Of a stretch of 4,125 nucleotides of DNA, positions 1-4,125 are shown piece after piece. The translations under genes were made by a program, and so were the position numbers. The notes beneath the pieces were generated by a model. It saw only the letters and a program-made list of their open reading frames with translations. It made no database searches and had not been told where the DNA came from. Origin of the DNA: a virus (taxonomy: Duplodnaviria > Heunggongvirae > Uroviricota > Caudoviricetes); the IMG/VR virus record IMGVR_UViG_2695420487_000011; one strand, written 5' to 3'. Position 1 is the stretch's first letter, and each line of letters begins with the position of its first letter.

Positions 1-66
1 ACTTTCCAGAACCATACGGACTGCCCGTTGACGGACTTCAGGGGAAAAACGAGTATTTTTAGTCAT
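1..66 (-). CDS. IS3-family transposase OrfA, N-terminal 22 codons only (partial, continues off the window)
   Basis: Minus-strand translation from the ATG at 66 down to 1 gives MTKNTRFSPEVRQRAVRMVLES, a helix-turn-helix N-terminus characteristic of IS629/IS1203/IS3411 OrfA. Too short for the six-frame ORF track to report. Confidence 0.65.
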   Translation of the reverse strand, partial: MTKNTRFSPEVRQRAVRMVLES

Positions 67-120
67 CCTGTTTACCTCTTTCTCAGGAAGTTTAGTCTCC
101 AGGATTCCCGGGGCGGTTCA
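1..120 (-). mobile_element. IS3-family insertion sequence (IS629/IS1203-like), terminal ~120 bp including one inverted-repeat end; element continues beyond the window start
   Basis: Reverse complement of 107-120 reads 5'-TGAACCGCCCCGGG..., the TG-initiated terminus typical of IS3-family ends. About 55 bp inside this end, a minus-strand ATG (complement of 64-66) opens an ORF reading MTKNTRFSPEVRQRAVRMVLES, which I recognise as the N-terminus of IS629/IS1203-type OrfA. Sid-like coding sequence begins immediately at 121. Confidence 0.7.
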
Positions 121-691
121 CGCTGATGACTGGCGCACAGCCTTTCGTGCAGCCGGTGGTGTCCTGAGCGACGAGCTGAAACAGCGCCACATTGAGCGCG
201 TGGCACGCCGGGAGCTGGTACAGGAATATGACAATCTGGCCGTGGTGCTGAATTTTGAACGTGAACGCCTGAAAGGGGCGTGTGACAGCACGGCCACCGC
301 CTACCGGAAGGCACATCATCACCTTCTGAGTCTGTATGCAGAGCATGAGCTGGAACACGCCCTGAATGAAACCTGTGAGGCGCTTGTCCGGGCAATGCAT
401 CTGAGTATCCTGGTACAGGAAAATCCGCTCGCCAACACCACCGGCCATCAGGGCTACGTCGCACCGGAAAAGGCTGTCATGCAGCAGGTGAAATCATCGC
501 TGGAACAGAAAATTAAACAGATGCAAATCAGCCTCACCGGCGAGCCGGTTCTCCGGCTGACCGGACTGTCAGCGGCAACACTCCCGCACATGGATTATGA
601 GGTGGCAGGCACACCGGCACAGCGCAAGGTGTGGCAGGACAAAATAGACCAGCAGGGAGCAGAGCTTAAGGCCAGAGGACTGCTGTCATGA
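121..691 (+). pseudogene. sid: sid-like capsid size determination (external scaffold) gene, 5'-truncated by the IS insertion; 3' portion of about 189 codons retained
   Basis: This frame is open from 32 to the TGA at 689-691, but 1-120 is IS sequence. There is no ATG/GTG/TTG in frame between 121 and the GTG at 200 that the ORF track uses as start (200..691, 163 aa). It sits immediately upstream of, and is translationally coupled to, delta in the conserved P4 order sid-delta-psu. P4 Sid is 244 aa as I recall, so roughly 55 N-terminal codons are missing. Confidence 0.65.
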
Positions 692-1188
692 TTTACTGCC
701 CGTCGTGTGGACATGTTGCTCACACCCGTCGCGCACATTTCATGGACGATGGCACCAAGATAATGATTGCACAGTGCCGGAATATTTATTGCTCTGCGAC
801 ATTTGAAGCGAGTGAAAGCTTTTTCTCTGACAGTAAAGATTCAGGAATGGAATACATTTCAGGCAAACAGAGATACCGCGATTCACTGACGTCGGCCTCC
901 GGCAGTATGAAACGCCCGAAAAGAATGCTTGTTACCGGATATTGTTGTCGGAGATGTAAAGGCCTTGCACTGTCAAGAACATCGCGGCGTCTGTCTCAGG
1001 AAGTCACCGAGCGTTTTTATGTGTGCACGGATCCGGGCTGTGGTCTGGTGTTTAAAACGCTTCAGACCATCACCCGCTTCATTGTCCGCCCGGTCACGCC
1101 GGACGAACTGGCAGAACGCCTGCATGAAAAACAGGAACTGCCGCCAGTACGGTTAAAAACACAATCATATTCGCTGCGTCTGGAATGA
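688..1188 (+). CDS. delta: Delta, P4-type late-gene transcriptional activator (fused tandem Ogr-like zinc-finger domains), 166 aa
   Basis: N-terminus MIYCPSCGHVAHTRR...CRNIYCSATFE is the Ogr/Delta Cys4 zinc-finger signature (CPxCxH...CxNxxCSATF). A second Cys4 unit follows (CCRRCKG...CTDPGCGLVF). The 166-aa length matches P4 Delta. Shine-Dalgarno AGAGGA at 674-679 lies 8 nt upstream, and the start overlaps the sid stop as ATGA (688-691). Confidence 0.92.
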   Translation: MIYCPSCGHVAHTRRAHFMDDGTKIMIAQCRNIYCSATFEASESFFSDSKDSGMEYISGKQRYRDSLTSASGSMKRPKRMLVTGYCCRRCKGLALSRTSRRLSQEVTERFYVCTDPGCGLVFKTLQTITRFIVRPVTPDELAERLHEKQELPPVRLKTQSYSLRLE

Positions 1189-1193
1189 GGGCT

Positions 1194-1209
1194 GCCGGTT
1201 AACACCGGC
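1194..1209 (+). other. Intercistronic stem-loop between delta and psu (GCCGGT-TAAC-ACCGGC)
   Basis: Perfect 6-bp inverted repeat with a 4-nt loop, 6 nt after the delta stop. There is no immediate T-run, so it is not a classical intrinsic terminator; possibly an RNA processing or attenuation structure. Confidence 0.35.
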
Positions 1210-1261
1210 CGTCGCCACACACCGTATTTTTATTCTTCAGCATGATGAGAAAGAGATAACG

Positions 1262-1834
1262 ATGGAAAGCACAGCCTTACAGCAGGCCTTTGACACCTGT
1301 CAGAATAACAAAGCAGCATGGCTGCAACGCAAAAATGAGCTGGCTGCGGCCGAACAGGAATATCTGCGGCTTCTGTCAGGAGAAGGCAGAAACGTCAGTC
1401 GCCTGGACGAATTACGCAATATTATCGAAGTCAGAAAATGGCAGGTGAATCAGGCCGCCGGTCGTTATATTCGTTCGCATGAAGCCGTTCAGCACATCAG
1501 CATCCGCGACCGGCTGAATGATTTTATGCAGCAGCACGGCACAGCACTGGCGGCGGCACTGGCACCGGAGCTGATGGGCTACAGTGATCTGACGGCCATT
1601 GCCCGAAACTGTGCCATACAGCGTGCCACAGATGCCCTGCGTGAAGCCCTCCTGTCCTGGCTTGCGAAGGGTGAAAAAATTAATTATTCCGCACAGGATA
1701 GCGACATTTTAACGACCATCGGATTCAGGCCTGACGCGGCTTCGGTGGATGACAGCCGTGAAAAATTCACCCCTGCGCAGAACATGATTTTTTCGCGTAA
1801 AAGTGCGCAACTGGCATCACGTCAGTCTGTGTAA
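1262..1834 (+). CDS. psu: Psu, polarity suppression protein (Rho antagonist / capsid decoration), 190 aa
   Basis: A 190-aa ORF immediately downstream of delta, matching the P4 sid-delta-psu order and the known length of Psu. A purine-rich SD (GAGAAAGAG) precedes the ATG. The ORF is followed by a hairpin and the cos site, as at the right end of the P4 genome. Confidence 0.8.
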   Translation: MESTALQQAFDTCQNNKAAWLQRKNELAAAEQEYLRLLSGEGRNVSRLDELRNIIEVRKWQVNQAAGRYIRSHEAVQHISIRDRLNDFMQQHGTALAAALAPELMGYSDLTAIARNCAIQRATDALREALLSWLAKGEKINYSAQDSDILTTIGFRPDAASVDDSREKFTPAQNMIFSRKSAQLASRQSV

Positions 1835-1867
1835 AATTCCCCGAAAATCCGCCCGTTTTTACTGAAA

Positions 1868-1898
1868 AAAGCCATGCATCGATAAGGTGCATGGCTTT
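1868..1898. terminator. Hairpin terminator-like structure downstream of psu (11-bp perfect stem, 9-nt loop)
   Basis: AAAGCCATGCA (1868-1878) pairs perfectly with TGCATGGCTTT (1888-1898). On the plus strand the stem is followed by an interrupted T-tract (TTTGCATGCGTTTCCC). On the minus strand it is followed by a clean T6 run (complement of A-run 1865-1870), so it may terminate in both directions. Confidence 0.45.
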
Positions 1899-1925
1899 GC
1901 ATGCGTTTCCCTGCCTCATTTTCTG

Positions 1926-1953
1926 CAGACCGCGCCATTCCCGGCGCGGTCTG
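1926..1953. repeat. Perfect 11-bp inverted repeat (CAGACCGCGCC / GGCGCGGTCTG) with 6-nt spacer in the cos-proximal region
   Basis: Read directly from the sequence. It lies about 45 bp upstream of the cohesive-end sequence; candidate terminase recognition or binding element, or structural element of the cos region. Confidence 0.5.
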
Positions 1954-1998
1954 AGCGTGTCAGTGCAACTGCATTAAAACCGCCCCGCAAAGCGGGCG

Positions 1999-2017
1999 GG
2001 CGAGGCGGGGAAAGCAC
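1999..2017 (+). other. cos site: 19-nt P2/P4-type cohesive-end sequence GGCGAGGCGGGGAAAGCAC
   Basis: Exact match to the 19-nt cohesive-end sequence that I recall as shared by P2, 186 and P4. It is positioned about 165 bp downstream of psu, as at the P4 right end, and is flanked by GC-rich palindromes (CCCGC-AAA-GCGGG at 1984-1996; GGTGCTCG 2033-2040 / CGAGCACC 2061-2068). Confidence 0.75.
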
Positions 2018-2071
2018 TGCGCGCCCCCGGTTGGTGCTCGTTACTAATGTTTTTTGCGCCCGAGCACCGTC

Positions 2072-2099
2072 GGGAAGGGGCTGGGGGGGATAGGGGAGG
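2072..2099 (+). repeat. G-run tract (GGG-aa-GGGG-ct-GGGGGGG-ata-GGGG-a-GG) fitting a G-quadruplex-forming pattern
   Basis: Four or more runs of at least 3 G separated by 2-3 nt, read directly. It sits just upstream of the point where composition changes from GC-rich backbone to AT-rich cargo. Confidence 0.4.
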
Positions 2100-2219
2100 T
2101 GCCTGACGTCGCGCGGTAATGTTGGTAAGTGTGCCGCTGATGGCTTCTGAGGGGAGTGGTAAATAGCCGCCTTTCGACGGTGTAGTGGGGAGAGTATTGC
2201 TTACAAACGTAATGAAATT

Positions 2220-2308
2220 GTTTGAGTAGCTAGGCTACTGCATAGGATTATTTTGTTCTGTTAATATATCCGTTAATATAGATAGATTGATCCAATTGAG
2301 TTTAAGGA
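2220..2308 (+). promoter_or_regulatory. Putative promoter/operator region of the 569-aa ORF
   Basis: AT-rich leader containing a 15-bp palindrome AGTAGC-TAG-GCTACT (2225-2239), a direct repeat GTTAATATA at 2260-2268 and 2272-2280 (12-bp periodicity), candidate -35 TTGTTC (2253-2258) with -10 TATAGA (2277-2282), and SD AAGGA at 2304-2308. Exact promoter elements cannot be fixed by eye. Confidence 0.3.
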
Positions 2309-4018
2309 ATGAGTATGTTTCAGATATCAGCTGGAGTGTTCTTTGATTTAGATAAAATAGAAAAACACGATGGCACATTTGTTTTTTATTCAAATGTTGA
2401 TGTGTCTTTCTCGGTGGAAAACACCTCCCCTCTTTTTAAAGCAAATAAAATAAGTCATGATGGTATAAACTGTTATGTGGTAAACTATACTCTCCTGACC
2501 GAAAAACCAGAACGAATTGAAGCTGGAGTCGTAGTTAGGGCTGGTGATGAGGATTATAGGCAACAATTTATTTTATTATGGGAATTCTATTTTGATTGTG
2601 TGGCTAGAGTAGAAAAAGAATCGGTTAAAAAAATATGTGCATTATCAAATTTTAATAAACATCACTCAAAAATTGCGCTTGAAGTTGCCCCATATTTAGT
2701 GGAGATTAATCGAAGAGTTTCATTTGATGATGTCTCTGGGTTTTCTGCTTTTATTAAAGATGTAGTGAATCTAAATAGATCTGCCTTTAAATCTTTAATG
2801 GCAGCGTTAAAAATAATTAGTGATTCAAAAGAATCATTGTCAACCAACTTTGACCTGACTTATTCCATGTTAGTCTATGCCTTGGAGTCTTTGTCTCAAA
2901 GAAATGATAACTATAAGTCTGATTGGGATGACTACGATCAAAAAACCAGAGGTGAATTAGAGTCTGTATTTGAGCATATGCCTGGTGAGGATGTTTGTAA
3001 AATTAAATCAATACTTATTGAAGGCAAACAATTCAGATTACAAAAAAGGTTCAAAGATTTTATACTGAAAAATCTTGAAGAAAATTATTTCAATGAAACA
3101 GAGAGATATCCAATCCGCTATAGCTTCCTTAGTAGAGCTTTAGATAATTTATACAAAATCAGGTCTTCTTTTGTCCATGAGCTTAAGCCACTTGATGCAA
3201 TGATCTCGAAAGCCTACAATCCTGTTGGTGATTGTCTGGTTCTTTTTGGCGAACCTCACTTCAGTTACTCTGGATTGCTTCGACTTCTTCGCCATGTGAT
3301 AATAAATTTTTGCCGTAAAAACTACAGTCAAAAAAGAGAGTCTGTTAATTGGGTGATGGAAACATCGGGTGTAATGGTTGCAGAGATATCTGCACAATAT
3401 TGGCTCTGGAATGCAGACGGATTTACAGCTAAAAGTATAGCGAAGTGGTTTAGTGAATACCTAAATATGTTAAATTTAGGCGAAGTCACTGATTTGCAGT
3501 CTATCATGGACAAAATTGAGATAATCTATGATCAATCCAAAAAAGAATATAAAAATGGGTTGTTGCATTTTTATTTCTTATATAACTTAATGCATAATGG
3601 AAATAAGGGTGAATGGCTTGAGTTTGCGAACAAGCGAAGTTCTATACTTGTTTGTGATATATATTGGTATTCATGCTCTCCATATTTATATAAATCATTT
3701 ACTAATGTTTCAAATGGTATTGCTGATATAAAAACATTGAGAAACTTTTTGTCTTGTTTTAACGAATATGATAAAAATAAATTTAAGCCAAATCGTTTAA
3801 ATCTCCCTGCAATGACCGAAGTAATTATGTTGGCTTGCGCAGCAAATTCATTCTTCAGAATTGGAATGTATCAAGACTATGTTTTAATGGGCAATAGAGC
3901 GATGAGAGAAATTGCTTCAGTAAAAGATGTATTTTATTATATAAAAGAACGATTAAGTAATTCACAACTTATTGAATTGGACGAGTGCTTGAGATTGTAT
4001 AGAAAAAAGGGGGGCTAA
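2309..4018 (+). CDS. Hypothetical protein, 569 aa, AT-rich foreign gene at the P4 psu/cos-proximal hotspot; candidate anti-phage defence protein with a single HEPN-like R-x4-H motif (R285...H290)
   Basis: Long uninterrupted ORF (1.7 kb) in about 30% GC DNA, where random stop codons would be frequent, so it is very likely real. SD AAGGA at 2304-2308 abuts the ATG at 2309; the in-frame ATG at 2315 has better 6-nt spacing and may be the true start (567 aa). No Walker A, PD-(D/E)xK or zinc-finger motif recognised. Motif KIRSSFVHELK (nt 3161-3178 encode R-S-S-F-V-H) fits the HEPN R-x4-H consensus. Family assignment not possible without a search. Confidence 0.85.
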   Translation: MSMFQISAGVFFDLDKIEKHDGTFVFYSNVDVSFSVENTSPLFKANKISHDGINCYVVNYTLLTEKPERIEAGVVVRAGDEDYRQQFILLWEFYFDCVARVEKESVKKICALSNFNKHHSKIALEVAPYLVEINRRVSFDDVSGFSAFIKDVVNLNRSAFKSLMAALKIISDSKESLSTNFDLTYSMLVYALESLSQRNDNYKSDWDDYDQKTRGELESVFEHMPGEDVCKIKSILIEGKQFRLQKRFKDFILKNLEENYFNETERYPIRYSFLSRALDNLYKIRSSFVHELKPLDAMISKAYNPVGDCLVLFGEPHFSYSGLLRLLRHVIINFCRKNYSQKRESVNWVMETSGVMVAEISAQYWLWNADGFTAKSIAKWFSEYLNMLNLGEVTDLQSIMDKIEIIYDQSKKEYKNGLLHFYFLYNLMHNGNKGEWLEFANKRSSILVCDIYWYSCSPYLYKSFTNVSNGIADIKTLRNFLSCFNEYDKNKFKPNRLNLPAMTEVIMLACAANSFFRIGMYQDYVLMGNRAMREIASVKDVFYYIKERLSNSQLIELDECLRLYRKKGG

Positions 4019-4125
4019 CCCATAAGCGCTAACTTAAGGGTTGTGGTATTACGCCTGATATGATTTAACGTGCCGATGAATTACTCTCACGATAACTGGT
4101 CAGCAATTCTGGCCCATATTGGTAA

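Follow-up and report, generated by a model that had tools for sequence, protein, structure and literature searches.

Apparently very recent IS629-type insertion in the sid gene of a P4-type satellite prophage of Escherichia coli

The DNA analysed here is a single-strand reading of 4,125 nucleotides from a virus of the Caudoviricetes (IMG/VR record IMGVR_UViG_2695420487_000011), which at its full length is called the window. At its left end a terminus that resembles an insertion sequence (IS) abuts a sid-like gene, and behind sid stand delta, psu, a cos site and a cargo gene. Since Sid is required to build small capsids of P4 size, this arrangement raises the question whether sid is really broken, what the satellite would have lost with it, and whether the preserved cargo gene tells of selection acting on the cargo rather than on satellite propagation.

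Layout of the window and its two IS ends

Window 120-1998 showed 98.9% nucleotide identity to positions 9746-11624 of phage P4 (X51522), the right end of the linear P4 genome, in which sid (9583-10317), delta (10314-10814) and psu (10888-11460) are annotated. On alignment with P4 1-260 and 11461-11624, the right-end homology ran to window 1998 (= P4 11624) and the left-end homology ceased at about 2026. A P2/P4-type cos, an intact psu and an intact delta were all present (Table 1), and the delta ATG overlapped the sid stop as ATGA (688-691). [quoted passage not shown] The variable hotspot was seen to start about 27 nt beyond the cos cleavage site, nearly at once to the right of the cohesive end (window 1999-2030). 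The GC content was 30-36% in the cargo segment versus 50-55% in the core, and an Rfam scan gave no family at gathering score.

Table 1. Features of the 4,125-nt window, with positions counted from its first letter
Feature	Position	Strand	Remarks
IS629-type left end	1..120	-	terminal inverted repeat of IS629 read from 120 to 107, TGAACCGCCCCGGG; orfA start (ATG 66, reads to 1 and beyond the window)
sid 3' remnant	121..691	+	sid nt 165-735; codons 56-244 at 122-688; stop 689-691
Longest canonical-start ORF in the sid frame	200..691	+	GTG start, 163 aa = Sid 82-244; no obvious Shine-Dalgarno sequence
delta, Ogr/Delta zinc-finger late-gene activator	688..1188	+	166 aa, full length; PF04606, E 5.7e-22; 98.2% aa identity to P4 Delta
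psu, polarity suppression / capsid decoration protein	1262..1834	+	190 aa, full length; PF07455, E 1.6e-88; 99% aa identity to P4 Psu
cos cohesive end, 19 nt	1999..2017	+	GGCGAGGCGGGGAAAGCAC; identical to the P4 left end; flanking right-end sequence conserved
Hotspot cargo ORF	2315..4018	+	567 aa (569 aa from the upstream ATG 2309); candidate ApeA-like HEPN protein
IS186 target, GGGG-N6-CC(CC)	4009..4020	.	window letters GGGGGGCTAACC; predicted 10-bp target duplication 4011-4020
IS186 end (IS4 family; PGAP 'IS421 family')	4021..4125	+	inverted repeat CATAAGCGCTAACTTAAGGGTTG; transposase ATG 4076, MNYSHDNWSAILAHIG...

The left end of the window belongs to an IS. Window 1-119 was identical at 119 of 119 positions to one IS3-family copy (E 8e-55) and matched IS3-family copies in 3,553 of the 5,426 complete E. 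coli genomes. Its identity was 99.2% to the copies that PGAP names 'IS629 family' and 94.1% to those named 'IS1203 family', so the element is IS629-type. Complete copies of 1,310 bp that end in this same terminus occur in other genomes, for example in E. coli 4/2-1. On the minus strand the orfA ATG opens MTKNTRFSPEVRQRAVRMVLES, and the first 22 codons of orfA lie inside the window; because orfA starts just inside the terminus, this is the left, transposase-proximal end of the IS, and its transposase reads away from sid. In a complete IS629, orfA leads by programmed frameshifting into orfAB, which supplies a DDE transposase.

The IS meets sid at nt 164/165 of the gene, within codon 55 (window 120 = P4 9746 = sid nt 164), and the A at window 120 is common to the IS terminus and sid. 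The remnant showed 98.95% nucleotide identity to P4 (566/572), encodes Sid residues 56-244 with 100% amino acid identity to P4 Sid, and matched positions 55-241 of 242 of the PHROG 6165 profile (E 4e-93). Within the window, sid has neither codons 1-55 nor the start codon nor the Psid promoter, and the TGT-N12-ACA activator site of Psid, which precedes the sid ATG in P4 and the relatives, is absent. The sid frame is open from position 32, inside the IS, and the earliest ATG, GTG or TTG in it is the GTG at 200, from which the longest conventional product has 163 residues. The gene of the window therefore falls short of a full-length Sid of about 244 residues with its stem (residues 11-137), and it is a pseudogene fragment interrupted by IS629 that should be annotated as such.

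An earlier note, made from the letters of the window, had described an IS629/IS1203-like end at 120 next to a sid without its 5' end and promoter. Both parts were borne out: a strong IS match was found for the terminus, of IS629 type by comparison of 1-119 with named copies, and the break in sid could be mapped to the base on the P4 alignment. The same note had held that delta, psu, cos and the cargo ORF were kept, and all four are indeed intact. It had also considered that a sid homologue of about 163-190 residues might be natural in related elements; the relatives E. coli ATCC 8739 and SCPM-O-B-9504 carry a sid of 735 bp encoding 244 residues.

A second IS, which the earlier note did not contain, was found at the right end of the window. 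The relatives cease to match at 4021, and window 4019-4125 (107 nt) was 100% identical to more than 2,700 records of the element called 'IS421 family' by PGAP, including the IS186 copy beside dnaJ in K-12. The terminal repeat, the transposase start and a GGGG-N6-CCCC target all agree with IS186. In the relatives L003 and L015 the uninterrupted site reads AAAAAAGGGGGG(C/T)TAACCCCTTTTATTTTT, a GGGG-N6-CCCC site with the target GGGGGGCTAACCCC, and it is a bidirectional terminator-like hairpin in which the converging cargo gene and int have their stop codons. The K-12 copy stands at the same place within its target GGGGATCACTCCCC and is flanked by a 10-bp duplication, GGATCACTCC. By analogy, the duplication made at the window's target would be GGGGCTAACC (4011-4020), which is predicted to regenerate the end of int (…KNKRG and stop) on the far side, where the junction should read ...CTTATG joined to GGGGCTAACCCCTTTTATT and lead into int. 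IS186 would have entered a classic GGGG-N6-CCCC target between the convergent stops of cargo and int, and a duplication of about 10 bp, as in the K-12 copy, should leave both ORFs intact.

The satellite segment is thus flanked by two different ISs. Both ends of the window stop about 105-120 nt inside a multicopy IS, and the window is probably a whole short-read draft contig broken at IS repeats. Since the contig ends are IS repeats, the completeness of the element cannot be judged from the window.

Relatives and the age of the two insertions

The same element with the same cargo was found next to ssrA in E. coli ATCC 8739 and SCPM-O-B-9504, where it has the full satellite set of alpha primase, epsilon, an Icd/ash-like protein, an AlpA-like HTH protein and int. 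The relatives were retrieved using a query that contained the cargo, so this sample is biased. A search of the relative L015 for att repeats compared the ypjA-alpha intergenic region with the one between int and ssrA, and the two shared no exact direct repeat of 12 bp or longer. Window 120-4021 showed 0 mismatches in 3,902 bp to the element of SCPM-O-B-9504, in which sid is intact and no IS186 is present at this place; it follows that both IS insertions are recent. An otherwise intact element with both ISs would measure up to about 13.6 kb, which is an upper bound, compared with 11.6 kb for P4.

The explanation that accounts best for these data, and that taken as a whole we regard as very probable, is that the window covers the half with the late genes and the hotspot of a P4-type satellite prophage of E. 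coli, one of those that integrate at ssrA, and that this prophage received two independent recent hits by simple insertion, IS629 in sid and IS186 between cargo and int.

The alternative that survives best, possible but unlikely, is that a larger deletion or inversion mediated by the IS has its edge at the IS629 end. The 5' end of sid, Psid and the whole half for regulation and replication (alpA, the cI region, epsilon and alpha) would then be gone or displaced, and the element would be a non-mobile remnant. Such a course is consistent with a window in which nothing to the left of position 1 is visible and a second IS stands at the other end, and deletion remnants of the same element do exist, in E. 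coli XJ34 and in DS26-1. However, short-read contigs end about 105-120 nt into any repeated IS, so that the layout itself is no sign of rearrangement, and at two other IS629/IS1203 hits in sid the insertion is clean, with a 3-bp duplication and both halves of the gene retained. One of them, in E. coli 4/2-1 (NZ_CP023834; L002 4811-6120), is an IS629-type copy with the duplication CAG at sid nt 122-124; the other, in E. coli M25631H (NZ_CP123059; L004 about 10225-11534), is an IS1203 copy in the opposite orientation with the duplication GAG at nt 385-387. The insertion sites of these two copies and of the window are distinct, and the three hits are therefore independent events.

The two deletion remnants are also of note in themselves. 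In XJ34 (L016 4001-7126) the sequence passes from a truncated ypjA into the element about 220 bp ahead of the cargo ORF; cargo and int are all that is left beside ssrA, and the late, replication and cos functions of the satellite are gone. DS26-1 keeps the element only from the middle of psu onward.

Somewhat less likely than a rearrangement is domestication, in which the host would keep the cargo defence gene under selection while the satellite functions decay; the earlier note had leaned to this reading when it saw selection on the cargo rather than on propagation. The idea has a precedent in defective P4-like regions whose mobility genes have become pseudogenes and whose defence genes are nearly identical (de Sousa/Rocha group, NAR 2026, PMC13586616), and the XJ34 remnant, reduced to cargo and int, would fit it too, though it comes from a sample biased by the query. 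In the window, however, the cargo is no better preserved than delta, psu and cos, and with 0 substitutions over 3.9 kb against an intact element the hits are too recent for differential selection to show. As the insertions left no time for a signature of selection to arise, preservation of the cargo is uninformative on selection, and the claim of the earlier note is not supported. The wider record of sid also argues against domestication. P4-type sid was found in 980 of the 5,426 complete E. coli genomes and was contiguous over at least 80% of its length in 974 of these 980; each of two exact full-length Sid alleles was seen on at least 1,000 contigs, whereas the 163-aa remnant ORF was seen on 116. 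These numbers indicate that sid is normally maintained.

Consequences for Sid, delta and psu, and other disruptions of sid

In the proposed course of events, an IS629 copy of about 1.31 kb would have inserted at codon 55 of sid with its transposase pointing away from the gene, and the rest of sid would thereby have been cut off from Psid, the start codon and codons 1-55. The translatable product would then be at most Sid 82-244, initiated at the GTG at 200 and devoid of most of helix alpha1 of the coiled-coil stem. In the cryo-EM structure of Sid, residues 11-137 make up a two-helix stem of 100 Å that trimerises through its tips at the threefold axes, a dimer knot is built by residues 139-189, and helix alpha6 (219-224) binds gpN (PMC7552001). 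With residues 1-55, and in practice 1-81, gone, most of helix alpha1 is missing, and the cage that imposes T=4 should therefore be unable to form. Sid dimers need the stem to trimerise into the dodecahedral cage, and the P2 capsid protein would presumably no longer be forced into small T=4 shells. From the published structure we infer, with good support, that small-capsid formation and size redirection are lost. The earlier note had claimed that capsid-size redirection was lost, and this was sound, given that the remnant is without most of the helix of the stem by which Sid trimerises (PMC7552001).

To hold that the element can no longer propagate would go too far. P4 sid1 mutants are viable and serve as vectors for transduction (PMC9122126). 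When sid is mutated, heads of P2 size take up P4 DNA as multimers, with low efficiency, and the yield of helper phage rises (PMC6893505). The delta and psu ORFs and cos are intact in the window, and if the left half of the element is intact as well, a P2-type helper could package it as multimers in full-size heads, like P4 sid1.

A second effect may be expected on the genes downstream. The genes delta and psu belong to the sid operon, and since transcription from Psid would have to read a 1.3-kb IS in antisense, polarity on both is expected from the operon layout; delta and psu are probably also poorly expressed. This polarity on delta may matter more than the loss of Sid, because delta is the most conserved core gene of P4-like satellites (PMC8628076).

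The effect on delta and psu would be relieved if an outward promoter in the IS629 end drove the sid remnant, delta and psu independently of Psid, as the earlier note had thought possible, and we consider such a promoter improbable. In the IS3 family the outward-facing -35 element (as in IS911, IS2 and IS3) sits at the right end of the IS, not at the left end, which is the one that faces sid here. A scan of 1-2320 found no sigma-70-like site on the plus strand with at least 9 of 12 matches. The relaxed scan gave TTGACG-17-GAGTAT at 28-56 (+), and this site has only 8 of 12 matches, a score expected by chance.

Neither IS junction of the window was found in any of the 5,426 complete E. coli genomes. 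The reciprocal junction of IS629 was predicted as sid...GACGC followed by the right end of the IS, that is, ...GGAAACGACGC joined to TGAACCGCCCCGGGTTTCC, with sid nt 1-167 attached to the IS and CGC as the predicted duplication. Neither the junction of the window (as a 30-mer) nor this predicted reciprocal had an exact match in viral contigs, GTDB-representative genomes or JGI metagenome contigs. An exact look-up of the 163-aa remnant ORF led to long contigs in which sid is broken by frameshifts or a deletion, and in none of the 10 contigs read by the IS of the window. Nine of the 10 have a +/-1 frameshift in a run of seven A (A7) in sid (nt 131-137, codons 44-46), and the tenth has a 62-bp deletion. 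The frameshifted contigs are L006-L014; in L006, for example, the A7 run is at about 9889-9895. This run could be a slippage hotspot, or it could partly reflect homopolymer sequencing error.

IS629-type elements were seen to strike P4-like satellites at several places. In E. coli 14EC001 (L017 1853-3066), an IS629-like copy of the IS3 family stands between the epsilon (derepression) gene and a 151-aa ORF, and sid is intact.

Given that sid is broken by IS629 here, by IS629 or IS1203 at two other sites and by A7 slippage in many public contigs, its inactivation might be a recurrent and possibly advantageous switch rather than mere decay, although we give this reading very little credence. If it were true, turning Sid off would stop the suppression of the helper, and an element enlarged by cargo or IS copies could be packaged as dimers in full-size P2 heads. 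Further along the same line, the stem-less Sid 82-244, in which the dimerisation knot and the helix that binds gpN are retained, might act as a Psu-like capsid binder.

The least likely reading of all, to which we attach almost no weight, is that sid is naturally short in this lineage or that the junction arose as a chimera during assembly. On 116 public contigs the annotation does include a 163-aa ORF identical to window 200-691, but in the contigs read this ORF is what frameshifts or a deletion have left of a sid that otherwise has its full length. SCPM-O-B-9504 carries the identical element with a Sid of 244 residues, and the breakpoint coincides with the IS terminus to the base, as for transposition and unlike a random chimera. 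A naturally short Sid was ruled out, as the relatives have 244 residues, the family is about 242-244 residues long and the remnant starts at position 55 of PHROG 6165.

The cargo ORF, significance and comparison with known systems

The cargo gene, which sits between cos and int in the relatives, gave no match in Pfam, NCBIfam or PHROG and no sequence match in PDB. The PADLOC profile Cas13-ApeA matched it in part (E 7e-6; profile positions 17-133 of 187 only). The AF2 model had a pLDDT of 84, and no specific fold match was found for it in PDB. Homologues of about 565 residues numbered 54, from Enterobacterales, Vibrio, Aeromonas and others, and one of them is named 'Apea-like HEPN domain-containing protein' by UniRef. 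The HEPN motif R-x4-H is present as R283-S-x-x-V-H288, with R283, S284, V287 and H288 invariant in 26 aligned homologues down to 28% identity. ApeA itself is a HEPN defence protein that cleaves tRNA (bioRxiv 10.64898/2026.01.26.701840). On its sequence, the cargo ORF is a candidate divergent ApeA-like HEPN defence effector, and this unannotated candidate is a more interesting object in the window than the insertion in sid.

In conclusion, the window holds an ordinary, apparently very recent IS knock-out of a known gene in a known satellite, and not a new kind of element. The two hits would represent ordinary early-stage decay of a mobile element through IS traffic. IS629, IS186, Sid, Delta, Psu and cos are all familiar components, prophage and satellite genes are routinely hit by ISs, and the pattern of a defective satellite that keeps a defence gene has already been published (PMC13586616), so that the significance lies mainly in annotation.

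The locus can be set beside several known systems. Its IS186 end is identical to that of the K-12 copy beside dnaJ and has the same position within the target, and unlike the K-12 target, the one in the window is the terminator-like hairpin that separates the cargo gene of a satellite from int. The insertion in E. coli 4/2-1 involves the same IS family, the same gene and the same orientation, at a site 43 bp upstream. In both 4/2-1 and M25631H the sites differ from the 164/165 of the window, and the two sid halves with the 3-bp duplication are visible there, whereas the window displays one side only. The P4-like elements of PMC13586616 and of types B and C in PMC8628076 resemble the window in having a broken core gene beside an intact hotspot gene; those are population-level patterns, often with several pseudogenes, whereas in the window the IS hits, one or two in number, are very recent and the sequence has not diverged from that of an intact relative. 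The closest functional parallel is P4 sid1, in which, as probably in the window, the function of Sid is lost in an otherwise P4-type sid-delta-psu-cos operon. Unlike sid1, the lesion of the window consists of a 1.3-kb IS at codon 55, and its effect is expected to reach beyond sid through polarity on delta and psu. By analogy with P4 sid mutants, the element described here would be expected to yield P2-size capsids only, to be packaged as multimers and to leave the helper unsuppressed (PMC6893505).
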